Positions 578-16,028 of a stretch of DNA of 64,000 nucleotides are shown one piece after another. Positions within the stretch are counted from its first letter, which is position 1, and each line of letters begins with the position of its first letter. Position numbers and translations under genes: made by a program. Below the pieces are notes generated by a model. The model saw only the letters and a program-made list of their open reading frames with translations, was not told the DNA's origin and searched no databases. Location: the NCBI GenBank assembly GCA_021774335.1, contig JAJFJD010000005.1, forward strand, positions 17,632 to 81,631, read 5' to 3'. This DNA is from Alphaproteobacteria bacterium (GTDB taxonomy: Bacteria; Pseudomonadota; Alphaproteobacteria; UBA8366).

Positions 578-622
578 CGAGCCGATAGTTCATTTCGGCT
601 GGTTGAGGTTTGTTTGATGGAG

Positions 623-934
623 TTAGCACTTCTTGCCGATGGAGCCGACTTCCTGGCATGCCTCGGCGAGAAAGCCCGCCGTGTTTGTGGCTGCGCCGGT
701 TACCACACCGACGTTCAACAGGTTGCCACCAACCTTTACGTTGCTGTCGCCGCTGATGACGCCGATACCCTGGTCGGCCTTGGCGAGGAAGCCCGCCGTG
801 TTGGTCGCCGCGCCGGTCACGACACCGACGTTCAGTGCGTTCCCGCCGATCTCGATGTCACCGGCGAATGCGGTGCTGGTGGCCATCAGGGCGAAAACGG
901 CTGCGGCGGCGAGGGATTTGATCTTGGTGGTCAT
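623..934 (-). CDS. Small secreted repeat protein, paralog B (103 aa)
   Basis: AGGAGA lies 7 nt before the ATG. N-terminal signal peptide MTTKIKSLAAAAVFALMATSTAFAG. Internal duplication with the identical 17-mer NVGVVTGAATNTAGFLA present twice. C-terminal CQEVGSIGKKC Cys pair. Confidence 0.7.
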   Translation of the reverse strand: MTTKIKSLAAAAVFALMATSTAFAGDIEIGGNALNVGVVTGAATNTAGFLAKADQGIGVISGDSNVKVGGNLLNVGVVTGAATNTAGFLAEACQEVGSIGKKC

Positions 935-987
935 GGTCTCTGTCTCCTGAAGTTTGTGATCCGAGTGAAGCGCTGTTCGCTTCCCTT

Positions 988-1024
988 ATCTCTACAAACG
1001 GAGACCGGCGGCATGAGGGGTTAG
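988..1024 (-). promoter_or_regulatory. Conserved upstream block (copy B)
   Basis: Plus-strand atctctacaaacggagaccggcggcatgaggggtta lies 54-90 nt upstream of the ATG at 934 and matches the block at 413-450. Confidence 0.35.
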
Positions 1025-1280
1025 ACGGCGGGAAATTTTTCTCGGTACTGAAGATTTCTTGGGGCTTAGTTTGACCCTCGGCGCAACGACACTTTGGTAA
1101 AGGTCATAAGCGACAGTTGGGCTTGGCCGCTGGGATGTCCGTTCCTGGGTGTAAAGCAGACCCAGCTAAAGAGCACCAAGATGTCCGCTAATAGCCAAAA
1201 GGCGACTATTTGACTTTCGCCGAATTGTCAGTCGATGTACGGCCCATGACGCTAGAATTGGCAACTGACAGATAACCGGC

Positions 1281-1481
1281 ATGCATGACTGGTACGGCTT
1301 CGCGATTTGGCTTGGCGTTTTGTTCATTGTGCTGCCGGCCCTAGCCGGAGGTGCAATTGGTTTTGCTCTCTATCGCCGAAAGCTCCGGGGCGGGGGAGCG
1401 AGCCTACAGGGCATAATTGGCGGCGCTGTTATAGGAGCCGCCGCTGGAGGAGGGTTAGCTGTGCTCCTGTTTGCATATTAA
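1281..1481 (+). CDS. Small two-TM glycine-zipper-like membrane protein (hypothetical)
   Basis: 66-aa ORF with two hydrophobic, Gly-rich segments (GIIGGAVIGAAAGGGLAVLLFAY). No clear SD sequence. Lies inside the AT-richer island. Confidence 0.4.
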   Translation: MHDWYGFAIWLGVLFIVLPALAGGAIGFALYRRKLRGGGASLQGIIGGAVIGAAAGGGLAVLLFAY

Positions 1482-1562
1482 GGTCCTGAAGCAATCGTCC
1501 TCAGTCCGCCCTGCTATCGTTAGGGTCTCTCCTCGAATTAGGGTATAACCAGCCCCTTCAAA

Positions 1563-2537
1563 ATGCTGACCAACACCGCACAGGGACCGGCCTTGTACTA
1601 CGAGAAACTGTCGAAGGAGCTTGAAGCGCTTTTCGGAGCGCCGGTCACGGTCAATGCTGAGAGCATCACCATTGGCGATAGGACATGCTCCATCGTCGAT
1701 GACGTAATCATATTGACCGATATTGATTCAGCAGAGCCAGACAAGAAACAGGTTATCGATTCCTTCGGCAGAGAGTGGGAGAGCTTTTCCGACCGCAAGC
1801 CAGAACACGAGAAGGAATTTCACGACTACTTCGATCTAATCGACCTTCAAGCTCTTGAGGGGAAGACCTGTGCAGACTTCGGATGTGGCATGGGCAGGTG
1901 GTCTCAAATTCTTCTAGAGAAGGTCCAACTCCAAACCTTGGTCGCAGTGGACTACTCGGATGCAATCTTCGTTGCCCGTAATAATCTGCGTGATCACCCA
2001 AACATAATTTTCATCAAGGCCGATCTCGAAACGATTTCGTTTACGTCGGATGCCCTCGACTTCTCGTATTGCCTTGGTGTACTGCATCACATCCCTAGTG
2101 GGGTCGAGACAGCGGCAAAGAATATTGCTAGCTGCTCAAAGGAACACCTCTGCTACCTCTACTATGACTTTGAGAATCGAGGGGTTGCATTCAGGACGCT
2201 ATTCAAGCTGGCCGATCTAATTCGTGTGGTCACTGCTCAGATAAACTCAGAAGCGCTGCGGGTGTTTCTGTCGCACGTATTGACGATTTTCGCGTACTAC
2301 CCGTTCGTGTTGATTGCCGGTCTCATGAAACGATTGGGCCTCAACAACTCGATGGTTCCGTTGTTCTACTACGCCGGCTGTAGCTACGAGCGCATCCGGC
2401 AAGATGCTTATGATCGCTTCTTCACGCCTGTGGAACTTCGGTTTAGTCGGCAACGGATCAACAACATATTCCGACGCCTCTACAGCAATGTGACTATCTC
2501 AGAGAACTTGCCGTATTGGCACTTTCTTTGCCGTTAG
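1563..2537 (+). CDS. Class I SAM-dependent methyltransferase (small-molecule/protein type, not a DNA MTase)
   Basis: Motif I DFGCGMGRWS and post-II motif CLGVLHHIP are typical of the Methyltransf_11/23-like fold. No DPPY/NPPY motif. The 3' end overlaps the convergent recombinase gene by 44 bp. Confidence 0.8.
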   Translation: MLTNTAQGPALYYEKLSKELEALFGAPVTVNAESITIGDRTCSIVDDVIILTDIDSAEPDKKQVIDSFGREWESFSDRKPEHEKEFHDYFDLIDLQALEGKTCADFGCGMGRWSQILLEKVQLQTLVAVDYSDAIFVARNNLRDHPNIIFIKADLETISFTSDALDFSYCLGVLHHIPSGVETAAKNIASCSKEHLCYLYYDFENRGVAFRTLFKLADLIRVVTAQINSEALRVFLSHVLTIFAYYPFVLIAGLMKRLGLNNSMVPLFYYAGCSYERIRQDAYDRFFTPVELRFSRQRINNIFRRLYSNVTISENLPYWHFLCR

Positions 2538-4167
2538 TGGCAACTGTTGTGCCACCCGGTAGATTCGCTTCAGTGACTTTGATCGCGTCTATGATCAACT
2601 CATTCAAAGCCTTGTCGTGAATTTTCCCATACGCAGCCAGCACGCAAATTGGATCTAGAGAGTCTGTCCGGTAGATTTCTATAGATGGTCGATTCTCTTC
2701 GAATAATCGAATTGTCTTCGGCTTAATTTCGTCACGTGGCAAAATGAAGTAGGAGACGATGTTCTTGTTTTCATCGTCCATGAGGGCGACAGCGACAATA
2801 TCGATCTTTGATCTGCGCGTCGGACAAATTTGCCAATATTTTTTGCCTGACTTAATTGCGTGCTGTTGAGTAACCATAAAATTAATCGTGATGCTTCCCT
2901 CAATTATTATTGAGGTGTGACGCTTTGTTATGACCGCATGTTGACCATTTCGCCGAATTTTCTCCGCTGTAGTCTTGGTAATCGCCAATCGCAATTCGTG
3001 AAGGGTATGTTGAGTATCCGGGTTCCAATACGCTCGAGGGGATTGGTAACCGACTAACTTATAGGCGCGAAGCAGTCCGCCAAATCGTTGTCCATAGGTG
3101 GTGACGCTGGGGATTCGAGGATCTGTTTGGATGAGTTTCCAGTCCAAATACTGGTGCTCTGACAGCAATACTCTAAGGCCATCGAGCATTTCGTCATCTG
3201 TTGAAAAAGCCCTTTGTTTAGGAAAAGCGTTTTGGACACGCTCAAAGAGTTCTTTGCTAACGATCGCTTTGCAAACGCCATCGACGCGAACCCAGGCGCT
3301 CGGATCATTTATTACCCGAGCGCCACCAAGTTTTTGTGATTTCTTATTCCAAATTTTATTACCGATGTAGATCTCGTTACGGAGCATTTTCCCGAGTAAA
3401 TTATTCCCCCATTTCCTTCGCTTTGCCGCTGGGAGCTTGCTCCTTTGCAGACTACGGTCAATGCTGCCAAGTGATTTACCCGAGGCAAATTCTTCGAAAA
3501 CCCAACGTACAAGTTTGATCTCGTCACTCGGGCCTGGAACAAAGATCGTTCTGTCTGTTGCAAGAGCTTTCGCTTCGCCAGCTTCCATAAGTGTTTTGCG
3601 AGTGCCATCAGGTCCGACGATCAGTCTCCGAAACCCAAAGTTTGTTGTTCCGTTTGTATGGAATCCTTCTCTCGATGCACGCTGCTGTCCGCGGAAAACT
3701 CGGCTGGAGAGGTCGCGGCTATATTCCGCTGCCATCAAACGCTTCATGTTTTTGACTAACGTTGCCGTTGGGCTTCCGTCATTATCAAATTGCTCTCCGC
3801 AGTACTCCACATGAATACCGGATTGACGGCATAGAAATTCGTAGTGTGCACTCTCATCAGTGTCTTGGAAGCGGCCCCAACGACTGACGTCGAAGACGAG
3901 GATAATTGAGAAATCAGCAGCGTTAGACATCACGTCCTGGAGTAGCTGCTTGAGTGCGTCTCGCTTCGCGAGGCTCAAGCCGCTCTTGCCTTGATCGGCG
4001 TATGTCCGGACGATTTCAATGCCGTACCGTTCAGCATACTCATTCAACGCGTTTATTTGGTTCTGAATCGCGTATCGTTGGTGCTCAGTGGAAACTCGTA
4101 CGTATTGGGCTGCGCGTCTCAGATCGGTTCCCGTGGACCGAGCTTCGTCCGAAATTATCGACTCCAT
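2494..4167 (-). CDS. Large serine recombinase (resolvase/invertase N-domain plus recombinase domain)
   Basis: N-terminus RAAQYVRVSTEHQ...YADQGKSGLSLAKRDALKQLL...VFDVSRWGR is the catalytic Ser resolvase domain, followed by a long recombinase-domain extension. Start set at the ATG (M13 of the track ORF, which begins at a TTG at 4203). Confidence 0.9.
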   Translation of the reverse strand: MESIISDEARSTGTDLRRAAQYVRVSTEHQRYAIQNQINALNEYAERYGIEIVRTYADQGKSGLSLAKRDALKQLLQDVMSNAADFSIILVFDVSRWGRFQDTDESAHYEFLCRQSGIHVEYCGEQFDNDGSPTATLVKNMKRLMAAEYSRDLSSRVFRGQQRASREGFHTNGTTNFGFRRLIVGPDGTRKTLMEAGEAKALATDRTIFVPGPSDEIKLVRWVFEEFASGKSLGSIDRSLQRSKLPAAKRRKWGNNLLGKMLRNEIYIGNKIWNKKSQKLGGARVINDPSAWVRVDGVCKAIVSKELFERVQNAFPKQRAFSTDDEMLDGLRVLLSEHQYLDWKLIQTDPRIPSVTTYGQRFGGLLRAYKLVGYQSPRAYWNPDTQHTLHELRLAITKTTAEKIRRNGQHAVITKRHTSIIIEGSITINFMVTQQHAIKSGKKYWQICPTRRSKIDIVAVALMDDENKNIVSYFILPRDEIKPKTIRLFEENRPSIEIYRTDSLDPICVLAAYGKIHDKALNELIIDAIKVTEANLPGGTTVATNGKESANTASSLR

Positions 4168-4273
4168 TGCTTGCAATCCCGTGTAGCGAAAGCAGTAACG
4201 CAAGGTTGCAAATCACAGTCTGAAAACCGTACGGGGAATGATATGAGGGTACAAGGAATATGGGGGATGCAGA

Positions 4274-4471
4274 ATGTCGGGAATAGAACACTCGGTGATC
4301 ACGGTTCGGGAAACGTTGAGTGTGGACGTAATCGATGAGAAGGGGATTGCCGTCATGTTTCTAAGTGCTGACGACACTGAATATATCGTTCAACTGCCTT
4401 TCGATGAAGCTAGCGGCCTAGCCGAGATGATCACCATTGCGCTGACGAGAGTGCAACCACAGCGCACGTAG
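4274..4471 (+). CDS. Hypothetical 65-aa protein divergent from the recombinase gene
   Basis: GGGGGA lies 6 nt before the ATG. Acidic small protein with no recognisable motif. Its position would suit an accessory or directionality factor, but that is only inference. Confidence 0.4.
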   Translation: MSGIEHSVITVRETLSVDVIDEKGIAVMFLSADDTEYIVQLPFDEASGLAEMITIALTRVQPQRT

Positions 4472-4650
4472 ACACAATCCAATTGGATGCCCGAGCCGCA
4501 ACATCTGCTTTGGGTCAGCAGCGGACATTGTGCGCATTCGCTCAGATGTCCGCTATCGAGGGTAAAGCGGACCGAAACCAAAAGAAAGAAGACATCGCTG
4601 GAGTATCCAAATCCGACGGAAGATTAAGGCCGTTTTTCGTTGCGACTAAG

Positions 4651-4700
4651 TCCCTGTTCCTCTGATTCATTTCCCTGTTCTCCTGCAAAACCTCCCTGTT
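4651..4700 (+). repeat. Three direct TCCCTGTT repeats phased exactly 21 bp apart
   Basis: TCCCTGTT at 4651-4658, 4672-4679 and 4693-4700. Units 1 and 2 extend to TCCCTGTTCYYCTG. Confidence 0.7.
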
Positions 4701-4790
4701 TTGCCCTTTAGGGAACCCAAAATTTCGTTACCGAAAACCAATGACTTATGTGGCGCGCAGATACGTCATGGTTGCCGAATCCGCCTAAAA

Positions 4791-4819
4791 TCCCTGTATA
4801 TTCCCTAAGCAACAGGGAA
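4791..4819. repeat. Inverted pair of the same motif (TCCCTGT ... ACAGGGA)
   Basis: tccctgta at 4791-4798. aacagggaa at 4811-4819 is the reverse complement of TTCCCTGTT. The arms are separated by a 14-nt spacer that contains ttcccta. Confidence 0.6.
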
Positions 4820-5094
4820 ACCGGCAGAGACTGGTTCGCCCCAGACTCCGTGCTCCACCACTATTCTCTATTTAATATCAATCTATTATAATGGACGTGC
4901 CGGCGCCGGTACGCCCGACGCGACTGCGTATGCTCTTGGTGGAAAACAGCGCCTGCCACCGTGGCGCAATCGGCGGTTGGCGAGTAGGATTCCGCGAAAC
5001 AAGTCATCCGGAAGAGTCGACTTCCGTTTTGCAGACAACAGCCGGCACGTGGATGGTTTAATCCAACGCGCGCCATAAACCGTGGGAGCACATC

Positions 5095-5526
5095 ATGGAT
5101 TCGTTGATTGGGATATGGCGCCTCGTCGAGGGCAAGGCCTGGGACGAAGATGGGAACAGCCTTTCGCCGCCGTATGGCGCGTGTCCGATGGGACAGATTG
5201 TCTTTACCGCTGAGGGCCGGATGCTGGCTGCCTTGTGCAACGGCGATACGGACGTCGGAAATGAAACTGACCGTGGCTACAGTTCGTACGGGGGCGTCTG
5301 TACCTTACGCGGCACCACCCTGACCACCGACGTCGATATTGCTTCCGATACCCGGCGGATTGGCGGCCAGCAAGTTCGGGAAGCGTTTCTCGACGGCGAC
5401 CGACTGCTGCTGCGGCCGCCGCTGCGGGCCTATAACGGAACGAAACAGCAGCGCGAGCTTCTGTGGCAGCGAATCTGGCGTCCATCGGACGATGGCGACC
5501 AGGGATCAAATGATCGGCAAAAATAA
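5095..5526 (+). CDS. Lipocalin-like domain protein (hypothetical)
   Basis: GGGAG SD. N-terminus LIGIWRLVEGKAWDEDGN...PYG..PMGQIVFTAEGRM and later GGQQVREAFLDGDRLLL resemble the bacterial lipocalin-like beta-barrel family. Confidence 0.65.
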   Translation: MDSLIGIWRLVEGKAWDEDGNSLSPPYGACPMGQIVFTAEGRMLAALCNGDTDVGNETDRGYSSYGGVCTLRGTTLTTDVDIASDTRRIGGQQVREAFLDGDRLLLRPPLRAYNGTKQQRELLWQRIWRPSDDGDQGSNDRQK

Positions 5527-5901: not shown

Positions 5902-6648
5902 CTATTCGGCGATGTGTTTTTGCAGGAACGCGAAGACCTTTTGCCAGCCATCGAGCGCCTGCTCGATGCGGTACATGGGCCGGTCGTAATAGAAAAATCC
6001 GTGCCCGGCGCCGTCGTATCGGTGGAACTCGTAGTCTTTGTCGTGCTTCTTGAGTTCGGCCTCGTGTTGATCCACCTGTTCCGGAGTCGGCGAACGGTCC
6101 TCGTTACCGAAGAGGCCGAGTAACGGGCAGGAAAGGTCTTTGGTAAACTCGATCGGCGCTTTCGGCTGCTTGTCCGTCAGCTCCTCCTCACTCATCACCA
6201 CGCGGCCGCCCCACAACTCGACCACGGCGTCGATGCTCTTGGTGTGGCAGGCAAAGAGGAACGCCTGCCGCCCGCCCGAGCAAGACCCGATCACGCCGAC
6301 CTTGCCGTTGTGATACGGCTGCGCGCGCAGCCATGCCACCGCGCCCTCGGTGTCGCCGATGACCTGTGCGTCGGGAACGCCACCCTCGGCGCGTACCTTG
6401 GCGGCGATATCGTCGGATTTACCTTCGCCCGCGCGGTGATAGAGGTTGTGGCTAACCGCGGCATAGCCGTGATGGGCAAACTTGCGGGTTGCCTCGCGGT
6501 AAAATTCGTCCCAGCCGGGCGCGTGATGAATCAGAACGATGCCCGGAAAGGGGCCCGGGCCCAACGGCCTCGCGACATAGGCCGAGATTGGCTCATTCTT
6601 GTCGCCGTTGATCGATACGGTCTCCGCAATCATCCCTTCGTATGCCAT
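5902..6648 (-). CDS. Dienelactone hydrolase family protein
   Basis: GPFPGIVLIHHAPGWDEF, nucleophile region GVIGSCSGGR, and C-terminal YDGAGHGF. Start moved to M40 of the track ORF (GAGGT SD). Confidence 0.85.
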   Translation of the reverse strand: MAYEGMIAETVSINGDKNEPISAYVARPLGPGPFPGIVLIHHAPGWDEFYREATRKFAHHGYAAVSHNLYHRAGEGKSDDIAAKVRAEGGVPDAQVIGDTEGAVAWLRAQPYHNGKVGVIGSCSGGRQAFLFACHTKSIDAVVELWGGRVVMSEEELTDKQPKAPIEFTKDLSCPLLGLFGNEDRSPTPEQVDQHEAELKKHDKDYEFHRYDGAGHGFFYYDRPMYRIEQALDGWQKVFAFLQKHIAE

Positions 6649-9922: not shown

Positions 9923-10112
9923 GGTTGCGCGGAAATTTCGCCTAAGAAGGCGGCGGGGCGCTCCGGCCCGCGACGGGTGTCTGGGTCTTGGGCGTCTTAT
10001 TGCAAATCCCTGTCGGTAATCTTCCGTGCATCACGATAGTGAACCCCACGCGGCTCGGCTAACATGGTCCGGCTCGCTGGATCTCACACCAAACACGGAC
10101 GGATACTTCCAC

Positions 10113-10493
10113 ATGATCGACTTCATCGGACAGCCGGAGCCGGATTCAATCAGACCCTTTAGCCGTGCGACCCGCGCCGCCGGCCTGATATTCGTTTCCG
10201 GGCATTCAGCACCGCACGATCCCGCGAAGGGTATCGAGCGCGGCGCGACCGCAGGCGAGCAGGTTCGAAACTCGCTCACCTTCATTGACCAGATACTGCG
10301 CGAGCAAGGCAGCTCGCTCCAGCGCGTCGTGCAGGTCACGATGTTGATTACGGACCCGGCGAATTATGCGGCCTGCAACGAAGAGTATGTGAAGCACTTT
10401 CCGGACGGGCTGCCGGCGCGCCACACGGCGCGTTTCGGCGTCCCAACGGAAGCAATGGTCGGATTCTCTTGTATTGCGCTGGCCGCTGACTGA
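10113..10493 (+). CDS. RidA/YjgF/L-PSP family protein
   Basis: PFSRATRAAGLIFVSGHS...ENSLTFIDQILREQGSSLQRVVQVTMLITD...ARHTARFGV is typical of RidA-like proteins. Start moved to M30 of the track ORF. Confidence 0.85.
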   Translation: MIDFIGQPEPDSIRPFSRATRAAGLIFVSGHSAPHDPAKGIERGATAGEQVRNSLTFIDQILREQGSSLQRVVQVTMLITDPANYAACNEEYVKHFPDGLPARHTARFGVPTEAMVGFSCIALAAD

Positions 10494-10606
10494 CACCGTC
10501 GATTTGGATACGCAAAACCGGAAGCCGTGCACTTGGCCGACACTCTGGCGCGCGATACCGCGCATCTTCGTCTCTTCGATGCCTTGGGCTGCGGCTTATG
10601 ACGGGA

Positions 10607-11647
10607 TCAAAAGTTCGATACGCGGACGGAGCATTCCTGGGTCGTGCTGAAAGTCGGAATAAAGGCGGAATGCTTGCCGGGACCGCCCGCGACGAGAATC
10701 TGGATCCTCTCGGGTGACGCGGACAGATAAAGATGATCATTCACGAGCCTGTTGCCCCGTTCCCCCGCATACAGCAACTGCTCGGATGCCACACGGGAAT
10801 AGTGGATCTTGGAATCTTCGTAGAGCTTCTGTTGGATGTCCGGGATCGACCAGCCGTCCCGATCAATCGTCTGCGCATGCTCTGGCCCAAGCGCGATCAC
10901 ATACGGACACGAGCCGCGGATAACATTCACGCCGGTCTGCGAAATCGTGCCTGCGATCGTCGTCAAGATAGCGTCACCGGACGTACTGGCATGATCGTTG
11001 AGGTTATGCGGAGGTTCGCAAGCAAGCATCGTTACGACACTGTCCGTAGCATCAAACCCCCGGCGCACGTGATAGGGTTCCCATGGGCTATCTTCCTCGT
11101 TCTCACCGAAACAAAAGCTGTATTTTGCCGGCGATCCTTGGGTCGCCCGGTCCATCTCGCCCGGCGTCGCGCCGCCGATATTCATCAGTGTTAGTTGGAG
11201 GGCGCGCCCGATTGTTGCATTGGCCCTTGCCCCCTGACCGAAACAGTTGCTGCCGCAATTAATATCCAGAGTCTTCCGCAGCGGCCCGCTGACAATCATC
11301 ATCGGCGCGCAGGAATGCGTCGTCGCCAGTGTTCCATGCAGATTGTAGTCCGGCTGAAGGACGGCACGCACGGCCGCCACGATGACGGGAAGATACTCGG
11401 CCCGGCACCCCGCCATAACCGCATTCGCCGCGATACCTCGAATCGTCGGAATAACCTGGCGCGGCGACATGGGCGGGAACGGCTCATTGTCGCCACGGCA
11501 GATTTCGGCAAATCGTTCGACCACACTCTCGGTCGGCATGATCAGGGGCAAGCCATCGCTCCAACCCTGTTCAATCGCAAAATCATTCCATTGCGCGGGA
11601 TCGAGGTCGCCGACCTCGATCACCTCGTTTTCAGTTTGGTCTGTCAT
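10607..11647 (-). CDS. Conserved hypothetical protein (346 aa)
   Basis: Long ORF with genome-typical composition and no antisense competitor with motifs. Segments GLPLIMPT and ANAVMAGCRAEYLPV look conserved, but I cannot name the family. Confidence 0.65.
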   Translation of the reverse strand: MTDQTENEVIEVGDLDPAQWNDFAIEQGWSDGLPLIMPTESVVERFAEICRGDNEPFPPMSPRQVIPTIRGIAANAVMAGCRAEYLPVIVAAVRAVLQPDYNLHGTLATTHSCAPMMIVSGPLRKTLDINCGSNCFGQGARANATIGRALQLTLMNIGGATPGEMDRATQGSPAKYSFCFGENEEDSPWEPYHVRRGFDATDSVVTMLACEPPHNLNDHASTSGDAILTTIAGTISQTGVNVIRGSCPYVIALGPEHAQTIDRDGWSIPDIQQKLYEDSKIHYSRVASEQLLYAGERGNRLVNDHLYLSASPERIQILVAGGPGKHSAFIPTFSTTQECSVRVSNF

Positions 11648-11841
11648 CGTTAGATGATCGCTTTCCGTCTAGCCACCGTAATTACGCGACGGTTTCTTTC
11701 GGTGCCGCCGACGCCACGTCGATGCGTAAACTAATAATACGCGATGGCGACATTGTCCCCAAAACGCCTCCAGCGGGATGTCGGATTAGGACGACAAAGC
11801 GGACGTCGTCTGGCGGGGCCGGGAAATTCTGCTGTTGGCCA

Positions 11842-12300
11842 TCAAGGGACGTCCACGCCGCCGAGCTCTTCCTCAACCAATCGCCTTAACCAATCGCCGA
11901 CCGGCTCTTGATTCTTGGCCGCGGCGAGTTCAATTTTTTCCATCATGGTTTTTGAAACTCGCAGATCGATTGGGACGGTATCGTGCCCGACCGGCGGTGG
12001 AGCACCGAATAGCTGTTCGATCTGCTTAATATGGTCATGATCCTCCAACCATCGGCATGCTTCGGCCGCCGTCAGGGGAATAATTTCTGTCCCACGAGCC
12101 GGTTTCCCTCCTCGGAGAATGGCAGAATAAAAAGACTCCACGCCTCCTTCGGCCGCCAGAAACAAAACCCCATTATCGTTACGAAAGAGGGCCTCTTTGT
12201 AGTCCTCTTCATCGCTTGCCCCGTCGTAGCGGCTTTCGGCAATAAGCTTTGCCTGTTCAGTATTATAGAGATGCCCGCCGACGACTCGCTTTACCTTCAC
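11842..12300 (-). CDS. Hypothetical 152-aa protein with ribbon-helix-helix-like C-terminal tail
   Basis: GTG start preceded by AGGAGTAGGAG. The C-terminal IDLRVSKTMMEKIELAAAKNQEPVGDWLRRLVEEEL has the beta-strand/helix/helix pattern of RHH domains. Last gene of the AT-richer cassette. Confidence 0.6.
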   Translation of the reverse strand: MKVKRVVGGHLYNTEQAKLIAESRYDGASDEEDYKEALFRNDNGVLFLAAEGGVESFYSAILRGGKPARGTEIIPLTAAEACRWLEDHDHIKQIEQLFGAPPPVGHDTVPIDLRVSKTMMEKIELAAAKNQEPVGDWLRRLVEEELGGVDVP

Positions 12301-12335
12301 TTGCTCCTACTCCTAATTTTCCTATGCCCCACATC

Positions 12336-13064
12336 TTATTCTTCAGGAGCTACTGCCGATTGGAAAACAGGCTCACCGGCTAACCAGCGCTCGCCCGCGT
12401 CTGGTTGATCGAGAGCGATATGTAGCGCGGCAATCAACTCGAGAAAATCGGACGAAAGACCTTCTTCTTTCAATCCGGACGACAACCCCTCCAAAACATC
12501 AGAATAGATGTTCTTTTGAGCACTATCATGAGGGATCAGCCTCCAACTCCTAGGGTAGTTCAAATCCTGTGCACAAATTGCCCAGTTGTAAGAGTTATAG
12601 CCGCGGCAAACGAGCGGACGTGCTGGGTACACAGAGCACTGTCCATCCGAAAGAAGAGGACAGAGCACGCGCGCGAAAAGCCGCTCGTAGGAGTTCATGC
12701 CTCGCGTTTGGAGCTCCGCCTCGTGAACCCGTGCCTTTAAGGCTTCCATCTCTTCTGGTGAAAAATTTTCGTTTACGTATGAAACAAGACTGAGCAGCTC
12801 CGGTACAGAAATCTCAACTTGGAGATGGCAACAGTAGTTGCACCCTGCTCGGCATGCCGCCGGTTTTGACGCACCTTTAACGCGCCGCACCGCAGCCAAA
12901 ACGCCACCGGCCAGCGAAACTGAGCTAGCAAAAATATTATTGAGGGTTTCGATCGTATATCCGCGCCGTAACGCCTTTATGACCAGGCGTCGCGCGGCAT
13001 CTGCAATTTTTTCTTCCGGGTCTTCATGAATGTGATTCTGCGAAGTGCTCGTTTTCTCAGCCAT
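12336..13064 (-). CDS. YkgJ/UPF0153-family cysteine-cluster protein (CxxxCxxCC; FliB-like family)
   Basis: AAGGA SD. The N-terminal cluster ACRAGCNYCCH and the second half CPLLSDGQCSVYPARPLVCRGY match the PF03692-type zinc/iron-chelating domain architecture. Confidence 0.8.
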   Translation of the reverse strand: MAEKTSTSQNHIHEDPEEKIADAARRLVIKALRRGYTIETLNNIFASSVSLAGGVLAAVRRVKGASKPAACRAGCNYCCHLQVEISVPELLSLVSYVNENFSPEEMEALKARVHEAELQTRGMNSYERLFARVLCPLLSDGQCSVYPARPLVCRGYNSYNWAICAQDLNYPRSWRLIPHDSAQKNIYSDVLEGLSSGLKEEGLSSDFLELIAALHIALDQPDAGERWLAGEPVFQSAVAPEE

Positions 13065-13132
13065 ACGATTTTTCCTTGCGATTCTTCAACAAGCGAACGC
13101 AGACGAGTAAAGACGACACTCCAACATTGATC

Positions 13133-13171
13133 ACCAAACAAACAAAGGGCCGGCACACTCAGACCGGCCCT
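13133..13171 (-). terminator. Intrinsic terminator after the polylysine mini-protein gene
   Basis: 8-bp GC stem agggccgg/ccggccct (13146-13153 / 13164-13171) with a 10-nt loop. On the minus strand it is followed by UUGUUUGUUUGG. Lies 22 nt downstream of the stop at 13193. Confidence 0.7.
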
Positions 13172-13192
13172 CAATCTTAGTATATTTTGTTG

Positions 13193-13483
13193 TTATTTTT
13201 TCACGGCTCTCTTTTTTCTCACCGGACGCTTCTTCACAGGGCGCTTTTTAACGGGGCGCTTCTTCACGGGTCTCTTTTTCGTGGCTTTCTTCTTCGTGGC
13301 TTTCTTTTTCGATGGGCTCGCGGCTGCCGTTGAGAACAGCAAACCGTCCTTTGTAAGCGAAGCCATAAGCGGCGCTGCAAACGCTACGCCGGTTACCAAG
13401 CCTGTAAGAAGCTTACGCCGCGTATCGTCGACGTTCTTCGAGAGCTCCGGATGAAGGGTATTCTTCTGATTATCTTTTGGCAT
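13193..13483 (-). CDS. Tat-signal mini-protein with polycationic KKRPV-repeat tail (96 aa)
   Basis: GGGAGA SD. Twin-arginine motif DTRRKLLTG plus hydrophobic region LVTGVAFAAPLMASL. Tail SKKKATKKKATKKRPVKKRPVKKRPVKKRPVRKKRAVKK has 18 Lys and 6 Arg in 39 residues. Confidence 0.75.
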   Translation of the reverse strand: MPKDNQKNTLHPELSKNVDDTRRKLLTGLVTGVAFAAPLMASLTKDGLLFSTAAASPSKKKATKKKATKKRPVKKRPVKKRPVKKRPVRKKRAVKK

Positions 13484-13546
13484 AGATCATCTCCCATTCC
13501 CCAATATTCGGGAATCCTATGCCATATTCAGATACCTTACACGGGA

Positions 13547-13561
13547 GCAATGGTTGTGCCA
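13547..13561 (-). promoter_or_regulatory. Sigma54 (RpoN) -24/-12 promoter element TGGCAC-N5-TTGC
   Basis: The minus strand reads tacattaagTGGCACaaccaTTGCtcccgt, which fits GG-N10-GC exactly. It lies about 64 nt upstream of the ATG at 13483, is intergenic, and is correctly oriented. Confidence 0.6.
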
Positions 13562-13676
13562 CTTAATGTAACACAACCACCATTGGCGTGATTCTCGCCA
13601 TTACAATGAACCGACCGAGCCGACGATATGAAACAGACACCACGTTCATGTATCGGTGGCTAAAAAGTTCTTCGGC

Positions 13677-13958
13677 CTATTTTGTCCCGAAAATTACGAA
13701 TTCTTCTTCGACGAATTCATCGACCGCATCGCGCACGTCTTGCTCCGGTGGCTCTGACAAATCAAATTGCTTTTGCAAAAGTTCGGCGATTGTCTCGATC
13801 GAATTTTGCCCATCGCACAATGTCAGTACCAAACCGGCAGTGTGGTTTAGGTAATGCACCCTGCCTCGACAATTGTCGTTTACGACCAAACCTTCCTCTA
13901 CGGAGGAAATCTCTAATCCATCAACCTGCTTTGGAAAGCTGGGCATCGGTCCAATCAT
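13677..13958 (-). CDS. PqqD-family protein (RiPP recognition element / peptide chaperone fold)
   Basis: RVHYLNHTAGLVLTLCDGQNSIETIAELLQKQFDLSEPPEQDVRDAVDEFVEEEFV matches the PqqD (PF05402) signature (xLNxTaxxixxLcDGxxtxxeIxxxLxxxy....DVxxfl). The true start may be M1 or M5. Confidence 0.8.
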   Translation of the reverse strand: MIGPMPSFPKQVDGLEISSVEEGLVVNDNCRGRVHYLNHTAGLVLTLCDGQNSIETIAELLQKQFDLSEPPEQDVRDAVDEFVEEEFVIFGTK

Positions 13959-14219
13959 GCTCCGTAAATATACATTTTAGTCGGAAGGATTATCCCCGAA
14001 CGCAATAAAACGGCAAAATTGGTGGGAGCCGCCTCACGCTCGACGTACCAGAATAACGCCGATAAACACACAGAACGTCAGCCCCGCGCCCCTAATATGG
14101 CCGGCGCGATTAATTGGGTTTCCCGCCATTCTTTCCGCCACGCCCAAACTGCCGCGGCACTGCCACCAACAAATGCCGGCAGGACGCAATCGCGATCATG
14201 GCTCGGCCTAGACGCCGCC

Positions 14220-15392
14220 TTAAAGCGTTTCGGTGCAGACATAGTCCGCAAGCCGCGCCATGAATTCCTCGCCCTTGCGAACCTGGTCGAGGGTGATGAA
14301 CTCGTTCGGTTTGTGCGCCTGGGCGATGTCACCGGGGCCGCAGACCACCGTGGGGATGCCGACGCGCTTTTGAAATAAGCCGGCTTCCGTGCCGAAACCG
14401 ACCTTGCCATGCTTGTTCTGTCCAGCGAGCCGCTTGACGAAGGCGACGACGGGTTCGTCTGGGTCGGTGTCGAGGGCCAAATTAGGGGGCGTTTCCTCGA
14501 ACTCGAACCCGGCATCCGGGGCGACGGACTTCATCTCGGGCTCGATCACGTCGCGGGCATGGCGTCGGATCTCGTCGAATAGAACCTCGGGGTCGACCGC
14601 CGGGAGGTGCCGGATCTCCATGTTGAAGCTGCAGCTCTTCGGCACGATGTTGGGTGCCGTTCCGCCGCTAATCAAACCAACCTGCATGGTCGTGAAGGGC
14701 ACATCGCAGTCTTCATCGAAGGGGCCTTCCTTCTGCCACTTCCGGGCCAGCTCCTGCATGAAGGTGATCAGGCGCGCGGCATATTCGATCGCGTTGACGC
14801 CTTCATGCGTCAGGCTCGAATGCGCCTCATGGCCATGGACATGAACGCGAACCTTCTTCTTTCCCTTGTGACCGATGATTACGCCGAGGCTTGTCGGTTC
14901 GCCGACGATGCACATGGCGGGCTTTACCGGCATTTCCCGCATCACCTCGACCAGACGCTTTGCGCCGAGATGGCCTACCTCCTCGTCGTAGGAGAAGGCG
15001 AAATGCAGCGGTGTCTTGAGTCCGCGGTCGAGAAGTTGGGGGACGAAGGCCAGCGCGATCGCAATGAAACTTTTCATGTCCGCACTGCCGCGGCCGAAGA
15101 TTTTGCCGTCCTTGACCATCGCTTCGAAGGGATCGCTGTCCCATGCCTGGCCGTCGACCGGCACCACGTCGGTGTGGCCGGACAGGCAGATGCCGGCCCG
15201 GTCCGTCGGCCCTACGGTTGCGTATAGATTTGCCTTCCGCCCTTCCTCGTCGTGCACCAGGCGGGTGTCGATCCCAAACTCGGCAAGATACTGTTGCACG
15301 TAGTCGATCAGCTCAAGATTCGATTCCCGGCTAGTGGTATCGAACCCGATGAGCTTTTGGATAATCGGCAGGCTGATTGGATTGTTGGTCAC
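14220..15392 (-). CDS. Acetylornithine deacetylase-like M20 peptidase (ArgE family)
   Basis: LIGFDTTSRESNLELIDYV, LSGHTDVVPVDGQAWDSDPF, GRGSADMKSF and the C-terminal AHKPNEF are typical of ArgE/M20. The track ORF over-extends at its 5' end. Start placed at an in-frame GTG (V94); the exact start is uncertain. Confidence 0.8.
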   Translation of the reverse strand: MTNNPISLPIIQKLIGFDTTSRESNLELIDYVQQYLAEFGIDTRLVHDEEGRKANLYATVGPTDRAGICLSGHTDVVPVDGQAWDSDPFEAMVKDGKIFGRGSADMKSFIAIALAFVPQLLDRGLKTPLHFAFSYDEEVGHLGAKRLVEVMREMPVKPAMCIVGEPTSLGVIIGHKGKKKVRVHVHGHEAHSSLTHEGVNAIEYAARLITFMQELARKWQKEGPFDEDCDVPFTTMQVGLISGGTAPNIVPKSCSFNMEIRHLPAVDPEVLFDEIRRHARDVIEPEMKSVAPDAGFEFEETPPNLALDTDPDEPVVAFVKRLAGQNKHGKVGFGTEAGLFQKRVGIPTVVCGPGDIAQAHKPNEFITLDQVRKGEEFMARLADYVCTETL

Positions 15393-15441
15393 CGCAATGC
15401 TTTCTGTTGTGGGCCGCTTCAGAATTGTCTGGTAATGCCGG

Positions 15442-15846
15442 CTACTTGCCCGGAATGCGCCAGGACGCTTCCGCGTGCTCGATCGTCGCCACGTCCAGCA
15501 CGACGCCGGTCGGATCGCGGTATTTGCGTTCATATTTCGGGCCCTTGCCCACGCTCTTGACCTGGCCATGGTATTCGCCGCCGGCGTCTTCAACGGACTC
15601 GCATGTTTCGTCCATATCGTCGACGAGGAACCCAAGATGATGGATACCGACGAAATCGGCACCCCGCGCATCGGGCGCGTTGTCGTTGACCCGAAGATTG
15701 AGCAGCGCGAGGCTTACGGTGCCGTCCGACATCATGACTCCGAATTTGGACTCCCGGACCCGTTTCATATCGAAGGCCTGTTCGTAGAATTTCGCTGCCG
15801 CGTCCGGATCGTCAACACTAAGCGCGACGTGACGAAGTTTGGCCAT
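15442..15846 (-). CDS. VOC (glyoxalase/bleomycin-resistance/dioxygenase) family protein
   Basis: GAGGAG SD. MAKLRHVALSVDDPDAAAKFYEQAF...GIHHLGFLVDD. Start moved to M49 of the track ORF. Confidence 0.85.
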   Translation of the reverse strand: MAKLRHVALSVDDPDAAAKFYEQAFDMKRVRESKFGVMMSDGTVSLALLNLRVNDNAPDARGADFVGIHHLGFLVDDMDETCESVEDAGGEYHGQVKSVGKGPKYERKYRDPTGVVLDVATIEHAEASWRIPGK

Positions 15847-16028
15847 TTCGGATGCTCCTCTGAAAATTGCTGTCTCCGTATCGTGCCAAATTATGGCGCG
15901 GGGCACTAGCGCGCGCCGTTGGCGCGTATTTCGAAGGCATCGCTTAACGGGGCGAAGCCGCCGTACTAAACTGCCCTGGGACCAAACCAAATGCCTTCCT
16001 CGTTGAAATGACCTGGGTCGAAGAGAGA

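Follow-up and report, generated by a model that had tools for sequence, protein, structure and literature searches.

The 64,000-nucleotide stretch of DNA analyzed here (hereafter the window) belongs to an uncultured alphaproteobacterium of the UBA8366 lineage (contig JAJFJD010000005.1, positions 17,632 to 81,631), and all coordinates that do not carry the L number of another locus are window positions. Its minus strand contains four co-oriented open reading frames (ORFs), at 11842-12300 (152 amino acids, aa), 12336-13064 (242 aa), 13193-13483 (96 aa), and 13677-13958 (93 aa). In the sense of transcription, these genes encode a PqqD-like protein, a small lysine-rich peptide, a YkgJ-like protein with eight cysteines, and a 152-aa protein that we call p152. 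We refer to the four genes as the cassette; none of the source annotations that we checked gives a name to any of their products. The features of the cassette, in the order of transcription, are as follows:

13677 to 13946, minus strand: PqqD-family discrete peptide-binding chaperone of the RRE (RiPP recognition element) type, 89 aa, assigned by its PF05402 match; a start at 13958 would give the longest ORF (93 aa).
13484 to 13598, minus strand: conserved non-coding region 5' of the peptide gene, a candidate promoter, operator, or 5' untranslated region (5'UTR), recognized by conservation and folding.
13319 to 13483, minus strand: residues 1-55 of the peptide gene, a conserved N-domain recognized by purifying selection, an invariant A-x-A, and a core block kept in rearranged cassettes; its marks are LHPEL, R22-R23 (13415-13420), the uncharged residues 25-44 (13352-13411), the AAPLMASL-TKDGL block, and A53-x-A55 (13319-13327).
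13193 to 13318, minus strand: residues 56-96 and stop codon of the peptide gene, a hypervariable polycationic tail and predicted mature or modified part, composed of SPSKKKAT, KKKAT, (KKRPV)x4, and RKKRAVKK.
13135 to 13172, minus strand: hairpin with T-run resembling an intrinsic terminator or attenuator, directly 3' of the peptide gene.
12336 to 13064, minus strand: YkgJ/CxxCxxCC-family 8-cysteine protein, 242 aa, assigned by PF03692; the only enzyme-like component.
11842 to 12300, minus strand: p152, 152 aa, with a beta-rich N-domain (RWLED motif) and a C-terminal ribbon-helix-helix (RHH) tail (about residues 108-146), assigned by family matches of hidden Markov models (HMMs).

Our ORF check returned the four genes at the positions given by a first-pass annotation, which had been made from the sequence alone. 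The same annotation had described the block as AT-richer than its surroundings, and its hand counts of G+C are exact (27/60 at 12301-12360 and 42/60 at 6301-6360); the cassette as a whole has a GC content of 50.5%, compared to 60.6% for the window, in which only 24 of 619 segments of the same size have an equal or lower value.

The four genes are one functional module. About 12 lineages share their order, and the loci lie in at least four genomic neighborhoods that are unrelated to each other (type I cassettes: the window, L007/8, L001/9, L010, L011, L020/21/24, L023, L017-19, L022, and L025-L028; the contig of L025 runs out after PqqD, peptide, and YkgJ). The YkgJ-like protein has about 70 detectable homologues, among which 21 clusters sharing at least 52% identity form a clade, and the families of its partners are similarly small (22 clusters for the PqqD-like and 24 for the 152-aa protein) and are found on contigs of matching size. 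Profile HMMs of PqqD, p152, and the peptide N-domain detected every partner in every cassette locus, the PqqD-like gene included, and no partner at nine loci with distant YkgJ homologues, which are solitary (at most 43% identity; Stella, Wenzhouxiangella, and others). Co-occurrence in other genomes, on which the first-pass annotation had made its proposal depend, is thus what we found, and it is all-or-none.

A second gene order characterizes the type II cassettes (L029 and L030-32), in which a related small ORF is followed by a fusion of YkgJ and p152 and then by PqqD, whose gene overlaps the fusion gene by 8-20 nt. The fusion proteins (P0120, P0121, and P0131, each about 400 aa), which stood among the best matches of a p152 profile search, consist of a cassette-type YkgJ domain, which keeps all eight cysteines, a p152-like N-domain, and an RHH tail. 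Since all four components stay linked through rearrangement and fusion, their organization argues for a physical complex of the YkgJ-like protein and p152 that would be coupled to the chaperone. On all three contigs of L030-32, a gene for a SRAP-domain protein lies 3' of the type II cassette.

The conservation at the nucleotide level spans from about 15 nt 5' of the PqqD start to the p152 stop codon, with sharp borders, and in every host the GC content of the cassette is below that of its flanks; L022, from a lineage of 68-72% GC, retains all four genes. The flanks themselves vary by lineage, with an ArgE-like gene and a 346-aa gene in the window, a 239-aa gene and AtuA/PhyH in three species known from metagenome-assembled genomes, a LysR fragment in L019, and DUF454 in L022, and orthologues of the alternative flanks of other hosts are absent from the window. 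No recombinase flanks the cassette, and the direct or inverted repeats found at its borders are only short, low-identity pairs, which we judged to be due to chance. The best explanation for this pattern is that the four genes are horizontally mobile as a self-contained cassette. It is a rare one (about 20-25 protein clusters; a p152 profile scan of JGI metagenome data yielded only 2 loci), with a narrow and patchy distribution among a few uncultured alphaproteobacteria.

The first product matches PF05402 with 38.7 bits, compared to a cut-off of 23.4 (E = 1.2e-9, profile positions 3-65 of 67), and the PqqD assignment of the first-pass annotation, for which it had proposed this model as a check, therefore holds. 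The 89-aa form (13677-13946) is likelier than the 93-aa form because the orthologues begin at Met5, and stand-alone RREs, which recognize the precursors of peptides that are synthesized ribosomally and modified post-translationally (RiPPs), are typically of this size class (PMC12710340). All NCBIfam models of the characterized PqqD subclasses (the PqqD of pyrroloquinoline quinone (PQQ) biosynthesis, lasso B1, HPr-rel-A, GeoRSP, and SCM) remained below their cut-offs, the best being TIGR03859 with 37.1 vs 46 bits. The family is strongly acidic, with a median net charge of -11.5 and an isoelectric point (pI) of 4.3. From its adjacency to and strict co-occurrence with the small ORF, the PqqD-like protein is a candidate binder of the adjacent precursor.

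The small ORF is a real gene under purifying selection: for codons 1-55 in five lineages, the ratio of nonsynonymous to synonymous substitution rates (dN/dS) is about 0.11, while the shifted frames give 2.8-3.5. The N-terminal 55 residues or so are conserved across twelve variants and comprise a basic pair, an uncharged stretch of 19-21 residues, and the motif (F/L)xVPxxxSF(S/T)(K/R)(D/E)GL. LHPEL is confined to the peptides of type I cassettes, and the idea that it is a universal chaperone-recognition motif, similar to the YxxPxL of lasso peptides, is weakened by its absence from type II peptides.

The sequence DTRRKLL of the window peptide, followed by 20 uncharged residues (KD19 1.83), fits the TatP-style regular expression RR.[FGAVML][LITMVF], and the region has the S/T-R-R-x-F-L-K-like motif and the moderately hydrophobic h-region of a twin-arginine translocation (Tat) signal. 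An RR or KR pair with 19-21 uncharged residues is present in 9 of the 10 tabulated variants and in both type II peptides; the pair is RR in the window, L009-11, L020, L019, L027, and L030, KR in L025, L026, and L029, and WR in L022. The L022 peptide (1849-2094) has RAWREL in place of the twin arginine and retains FAAPQIVSFARDG, the A-x-A, and a short K/R tail. Neither of the curated Tat models (PF10518 and TIGR01409) matches the window peptide, and the best score in the family is 13.4 vs 22.7 bits (PF10518, L029); the weak matches of the N-domain go only to Tat-type signals, among them segments of Rieske proteins and a small "formate dehydrogenase region TAT target" family, which speaks for export. 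The twin-arginine signal that the first-pass annotation had described is therefore present as a motif in the close clade of the window and does not extend to the lineages with KR or WR or to the curated models.

The A-x-A ends 10-14 residues after the SF anchor and is invariant in 9/9 non-redundant lineages, and the residue between the two alanines varies freely (A, S, M, T, N, E, Y, or Q). None of 20,000 composition-matched shuffles reproduces the pattern, a nominal probability that overstates its significance because the lineages are related. With A-x-A at positions -3/-1 past a hydrophobic region, the sequence has the form of a signal-peptidase I site, and cleavage at this point is predicted. 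Export of the peptide is plausible, all the more so because the A-x-A is present, and the Tat route specifically is a candidate for it. These features support the view that the small ORF is built like the gene of a lysine-rich peptide that is exported and processed.

The remainder of the peptide is a polycationic tail. Its last 39 residues include 18 K and 6 R, the numbers that the first-pass annotation had counted, and the 46 residues past the DGL..F motif have a net charge of +24 and not a single acidic residue. The tail is encoded by 15-bp tandem repeats (13219-13311). Its length after the A-x-A ranges from 9 to 51 residues across lineages; KK[K/R] is always present and appears for the first time at a roughly fixed distance of 11-15 residues past the DGL motif. 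The tails read (KKKAT)1-3 (KKRPV)3-6 in the clade of the window, K/R-rich and then GPPP repeats in L019, KKKA-type repeats in L025-L027, the 13-residue QPQRGGKKRAKRA in L022, and the 14-residue LGKDCIKKKACGKP, with two cysteines, in L030. The repeat peptide of the first-pass annotation is accordingly a feature of the window's clade, where KKRPV is lineage-specific, and only the KK[K/R] cluster is universal. In the type II peptide (L030 1580-1804 / L032 208-378), which terminates in LGKDCIKKKACGKP, the two cysteines bracket KKK, and a small loop closed by a disulfide would be possible if the product is exported. The number of repeats differs even between strains whose enzymes are 99-100% identical: the peptide has 96 aa in the window vs 106 aa in L007 (2552-2872), the extra residues being one KKKAT and one KKRPV. 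Since the neighboring YkgJ protein is 100% identical between these two, the length of the tail evolves fast by slippage.

Two non-coding elements surround the peptide gene. The 115 nt at 13484-13598 show 89% identity in five lineages, compared to 63-70% for codon third positions and 55% for the rest of the spacer. The region 5' of the peptide start folds better than its shuffles (z = -3.55) and includes a palindrome or hairpin with a 14-bp stem (13549-13581) and a second hairpin that abuts the Shine-Dalgarno sequence (13496-13515). It may be a 5'UTR element or the operator on which the RHH protein would act. A sigma-70 promoter scan was uninformative (1 site vs 2.1 expected by chance), and an Rfam scan of 10000-16000 at E <= 1 found nothing. 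On the 3' side, the terminator-like hairpin at 13172-13145 has a 10-bp stem with 7 G-C pairs and is followed by TGTTTGTTTG. It is conserved in close lineages, and L019, L026, and L027 have hairpins at the same position with other stems (in L027, CCGG -> CTGG/CCAG). This conservation implies a short, abundant peptide transcript, with read-through into the enzyme genes.

The YkgJ-like protein matches PF03692 (CxxCxxCC) with 29.9 bits, compared to a cut-off of 23, in agreement with the first-pass annotation, whose two quoted motifs, CRAGCNYCC and CPLLSDGQCSVYPARPLVCRGY, are both present. In 42 homologues, C71, C75, C78, C79, C135, C143, C153, C164, R149, and P150 are invariant, so that a CX3CX2CC motif at residues 71-79 is joined by four further invariant cysteines, and the protein is presumed to be an Fe-S (or Zn) protein. 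Its AlphaFold2 model has a predicted local distance difference test score (pLDDT) of 90.3; PDB searches by sequence and by fold returned no relative, and no NCBIfam model, those of FliB type included, matches at E <= 1.

The first-pass annotation had linked this protein to FliB of Salmonella, which in the literature searched is the sole PF03692-linked protein with a characterized reaction. FliB is a [4Fe-4S]- and S-adenosylmethionine (SAM)-dependent flagellin lysine methyltransferase with 8 conserved cysteines, whose CX4CX3CC motif (C17/C22/C26/C27) binds the cluster and has been likened to the PF03692-type motif, and which acts on its secreted substrate before export (PMC8598068). The two systems are alike in having a Cys-cluster protein with this type of motif and eight conserved cysteines, a substrate that is rich in lysines or exposes them and that is, or in the cassette would be, secreted afterwards, and a small dedicated chaperone proposed to deliver the substrate before export (PMC8598068). 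They differ in the motif, which is CX4CX3CC at the extreme N-terminus of FliB and CX3CX2CC at residues 71-79 of the cassette protein, in the substrate, which here would be a 65-106-aa peptide and not flagellin, and in the chaperone, which is of the PqqD type and not FliS. FliB also reportedly has about 400 aa, compared to 242 aa for the cassette protein. No flagellar genes were found at any locus examined, the neighbors being ArgE, glyoxalase, RidA-like, and similar genes. The proposed membership of the FliB family is thus not borne out, and a FliB-like lysine methylation of the peptide stays an analogy only.

The sequence of p152 in the window has no Pfam match above threshold, and its RHH tail goes undetected there. 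At the level of the family, PF05534 (HicB) matches 13/21 members (best E = 8e-6) and RHH_10 or TacA1 matches 8/21, so that the RHH-like tail of the first-pass annotation stands for the family and falls below threshold for the window copy. The PDB sequence matches are weak and point to the RHH antitoxins TacA/KacA and to HP0222. The model of p152 (pLDDT 70) presents a beta-rich N-domain and a C-terminal strand-helix-helix, and fold searches in PDB and BFVD gave only a weak resemblance to PUR repeats and uncharacterized phage proteins. A metal or catalytic site at RWLEDHDH was considered and rejected, as HDH is not kept in the fusions or in the wider family. Judging from the fusion and the family matches, p152 is probably both a partner of the YkgJ-like protein and a DNA-binding regulator.

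The reading that we favor, with a probability of roughly 40%, is that of a RiPP-like, RRE-guided cassette that makes, modifies, and exports a lysine-rich peptide. According to this reading, the 96-aa product would be the precursor, and its N-domain of about 55 residues would serve both as a PqqD-type recognition sequence and as a Tat/Sec-type export signal. The 8-Cys YkgJ-family protein and p152 would form a complex, to which the acidic PqqD-type chaperone would hand the precursor and which would modify the Lys-rich C-terminal segment, whose first KK[K/R] lies at a fixed spacing from DGL. The precursor would then be translocated by a general pathway and cut by a signal-peptidase-type enzyme after A-x-A, a cleavage that would free a polycationic peptide of 9-51 residues (41 residues and +24 in the source genome). 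The RHH tail of p152 would probably autoregulate the cassette via the conserved palindrome 5' of the peptide gene, and the terminator after this gene would keep the mRNA of the precursor above that of the enzymes.

A precursor-like peptide is supported by the contrast between a conserved N-domain and a hypervariable tail, by the polymorphism of the repeats, and by the conserved 3' terminator hairpin. The anatomy observed is compatible with that of a RiPP locus, with a conserved recognition region, a variable core, an RRE, and a candidate enzyme, the latter from a family without a known role in RiPPs. The closest parallel is found in the bufferin clusters (MNIO/DUF692 enzyme, DUF2063 RRE partner, and DUF2282 precursor), which likewise have a secretion signal in place of a classical leader and an RRE-type partner (PMC11626156, PMC12710340). 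The bufferin precursors bear Sec signal peptides, with cleavage at the signal-peptidase site, and it is for them that this logic was first shown (PMC11626156, PMC12710340). Both systems are without a dedicated protease or transporter, for which general secretion and signal peptidase could substitute. They are nevertheless different in their components: the cassette has a PF03692 enzyme and not MNIO, a discrete PqqD and not DUF2063, a signal that is Tat-like and unusually conserved and not Sec-like, and a lysine-rich unstructured tail and not a Cys-containing, folded, copper-binding domain. None of the cassette proteins has a Pfam match to MNIO (DUF692), DUF2063, or DUF2282.

Pathways with a discrete RRE, such as PqqD-PqqE in PQQ biosynthesis and lasso-peptide B1, resemble the cassette in that a stand-alone PF05402 protein of about 90 aa lies beside a small precursor gene and a modifying enzyme. 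The cassette differs from them by the lack of a radical-SAM enzyme, a lasso B2 protease, or a cyclase, by the sub-cut-off scores with the class-specific NCBIfam PqqD models, and by a precursor that is much longer and resembles a signal peptide. The first-pass annotation had pointed out the absence of classical RiPP maturases in the window, and this absence is general: no radical-SAM, YcaO, or lasso enzyme adjoins the cassette in any locus examined.

Several observations weigh against the RiPP-like reading. The passage of a +24 tail across an energized membrane is unfavorable by the positive-inside rule, and modification of the peptide is something we infer. The literature searched contains no PF03692 protein in any RiPP pathway, and neither a dedicated leader protease nor an exporter was found in or beside the cassette at any locus examined. 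The export signal itself has irregularities: the twin arginine is swapped for KR in three lineages, the curated Tat models do not match, and a distance of 10-14 residues from the hydrophobic stretch to the A-x-A is long for the c-region of a signal peptide. The L022 peptide has neither RR nor hydrophobicity (D, H, and Q in the "h-region", KD19 0.94), and its cassette is seemingly intact; it may be a non-exported variant or have a different start codon. The signal-like region equals the enzymes in its degree of conservation; a mere signal peptide would not usually do so, which suggests that the region doubles as a protein-recognition sequence. The YkgJ-like proteins of the cassette clade are not clearly more acidic than the solitary ones (median net charge -4.5 vs -2, with overlapping ranges). 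Finally, the p152 family is generic to mobile elements, with one member in an antitoxin position beside MazF.

A bolder form of the RiPP-like reading would make the cassette a new RiPP class, in which the RRE recruits a [4Fe-4S] enzyme of the FliB superfamily and an RHH partner, lysines are modified (for example by poly-N-methylation), the leader is of the Tat type, and cleavage at A-x-A releases a modified polycation outside the cytoplasm. We regard this specific version as unlikely.

A doubtful but living alternative is that the cassette is a mobile toxin/immunity or defense-type module. The small hydrophobic and polycationic protein would then be a membrane-active or nucleic-acid-binding toxic effector (comparable to a small membrane toxin, a holin, or a bacteriocin), which the acidic PqqD-like protein and p152 would neutralize, repress, or both, and the YkgJ-like protein would be a redox or metal sensor or an activator. 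What keeps this alternative alive is a p152 relative in antitoxin position. The protein (L033 3501-4363, on the Methylobacterium fujisawaense plasmid NZ_CP155001.1; 29% identity over 93% of the query) is annotated as a HicB-family antitoxin and precedes a PemK/MazF toxin gene at a distance of 8 nt, so that it is possible that it represents an unrecognized antitoxin class for MazF. An exhaustive profile search of the p152 family returned 1,964 representatives, with members from several phyla on plasmids (Methylobacterium, Roseovarius, Selenomonas), in Lactobacillus and Paracoccus phages, and in an archaeal virus. The architecture of p152, a globular N-terminal domain and a C-terminal RHH, is that of HicB-type and other RHH type II antitoxins (HicB, TacA/KacA, Arc/CopG), in agreement with the PF05534, RHH_10, and TacA1 matches of its relatives. 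The PqqD-like protein and p152 each have a net charge of about -11, facing a tail of +5 to +30, and the low GC in every host, the variety of contexts (at least four), and the narrow, patchy distribution would suit such a module. In HicAB systems, hicA precedes hicB, an order that YkgJ followed by p152 would mirror, and fused toxin-antitoxin proteins exist.

Other findings oppose a toxin module. PADLOC and PHROGs give nothing significant for any of the four proteins, no recognizable toxin domain is present, and no cognate toxin, HicA or other, was found in the cassette by Pfam, NCBIfam, PADLOC, or PHROGs. Unlike HicB, p152 has no match to a HicB N-domain model, and its partner is a Cys-cluster protein, fused to it in some lineages. 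We know of no antitoxin role for PqqD-family proteins. Moreover, p152 keeps its N-domain in contexts where its partners differ, an argument against partner-specific neutralization. The adjacency to MazF is a single case, and an invariant A-x-A before a hypervariable tail is more in line with a product that is processed and exported than with a toxin inside the cell.

Quite unlikely, in our view, is a peptide that stays in the membrane as a cytoplasm-facing polycation. In this case, the anchor would not be cleaved and the Lys-rich tail would bind DNA, RNA, polyphosphate, or acidic lipids in the manner of histone H1, with the YkgJ::p152 pair as a redox-responsive RHH regulator and the PqqD-like protein as an assembly chaperone. 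The positive-inside rule would favor a +24 tail on the inner side, and the tail has a weak NCBIfam match (E = 0.24) to the family of Rv3852, which we take to be a histone-like protein. The weak matches of the N-domain to Rieske proteins are also compatible, the Tat signals of these proteins remaining as uncleaved anchors, and the fusion of a Cys cluster to an RHH tail resembles enzyme/sensor-repressor fusions such as PutA. However, such an anchor leaves the invariant A-x-A before the tail unexplained and provides no reason for a PqqD-type peptide chaperone; from a structural polyanion binder, one would not expect a tail of such variable length (9-51 residues, with polymorphism within strains), and the L022 peptide lacks a hydrophobic anchor.

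It is very improbable that the small protein lends its Tat signal to a hitch-hiker, that is, to a cofactor-loaded, signal-less YkgJ-like Fe-S protein that would be co-exported with it under the control of the PqqD-like protein as a proofreading chaperone like TorD or NapD. Fe-S proteins belong to the usual Tat cargo, hydrogenases are an established case of hitch-hiking, the clade of the window has a Tat-like RRKLL motif, and there are weak matches to the formate dehydrogenase-associated family mentioned above. Against this, three lineages have KR and L022 has WR in place of RR, the curated Tat models are sub-threshold, and a carrier needs neither a hypervariable Lys-rich tail nor an A-x-A before it. 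The fusion of YkgJ to an RHH DNA-binding module in type II cassettes points to a cytoplasmic protein, and a terminator behind the peptide gene means that expression would not be stoichiometric.

Incidental adjacency of four unrelated genes on a low-GC island, the small ORF perhaps not being a gene, could draw on the lack of any product with an experimentally known function and of above-threshold family matches for p152 and the peptide of the window, but it is effectively refuted by the all-or-none co-occurrence in about 12 lineages and two gene orders, by the fusion of two components, by the dN/dS of the small ORF, and by the sharp boundaries of the block.

The genes next to the cassette had been described by the first-pass annotation as housekeeping-type. 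The upstream neighbor is confirmed as an ArgE-type deacetylase (NF005710 of NCBIfam, 538 bits). The downstream neighbor, a 346-aa ORF at 10607-11647 on the minus strand, has no match in Pfam, NCBIfam, PHROGs, or PADLOC to back the label. We rejected this 346-aa gene as a fifth component, given that it does not lie beside the cassette in any other genome. The ArgE-like ORF as listed (14220-15671, minus strand, 483 aa) reaches too far in the 5' direction, with a family match that begins near residue 95; the gene called on the near-identical contig L007 has 390 aa. At about 7.6 kb from the cassette, the window contains a second low-GC island (600-5400, about 48% vs 60.6% GC), which encodes a large serine recombinase with Resolvase and Recombinase domains (2494-4203, minus strand) and a class I SAM methyltransferase (1563-2537, plus strand), and which is probably a separate mobile-element remnant.

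The first-pass annotation knew of no described system with this composition, and the literature that we searched agrees: no paper was found that links PqqD with YkgJ/PF03692, FliB with RiPPs, or RREs with lysine-rich or Tat-type precursors. The RRE-dependent logic that the cassette would follow is known from RiPPs, whereas the enzyme family would be unprecedented there, the precursor unusual, and the RHH partner, fused or associated, an additional element. PF03692 (YkgJ/UPF0153) is a very widespread family. Going by the literature searched, none of its members has a solved structure, and PDB searches with the cassette member found no relative by sequence or fold. The cassette supplies a member of this family together with a genetically defined, small, and easily synthesized candidate substrate and a dedicated chaperone, which makes the chemistry of PF03692 directly testable.

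If the toxin/immunity alternative were true, the cassette would be an undescribed four-component module built around a peptide chaperone. If the RiPP-like reading is true, RiPP biosynthesis would gain a new class-defining enzyme, the use of secretion signals in RiPP precursors, as in the bufferins, would extend to a Tat-like signal, and the products would form a natural family of polycationic peptides with Pro/Lys repeats, which may be antimicrobial or bind polyanions. Should the cassette prove to be a lysine-modifying new RiPP class, it would provide the first function of YkgJ/PF03692 outside flagellin methylation and the first Tat-routed RiPP.

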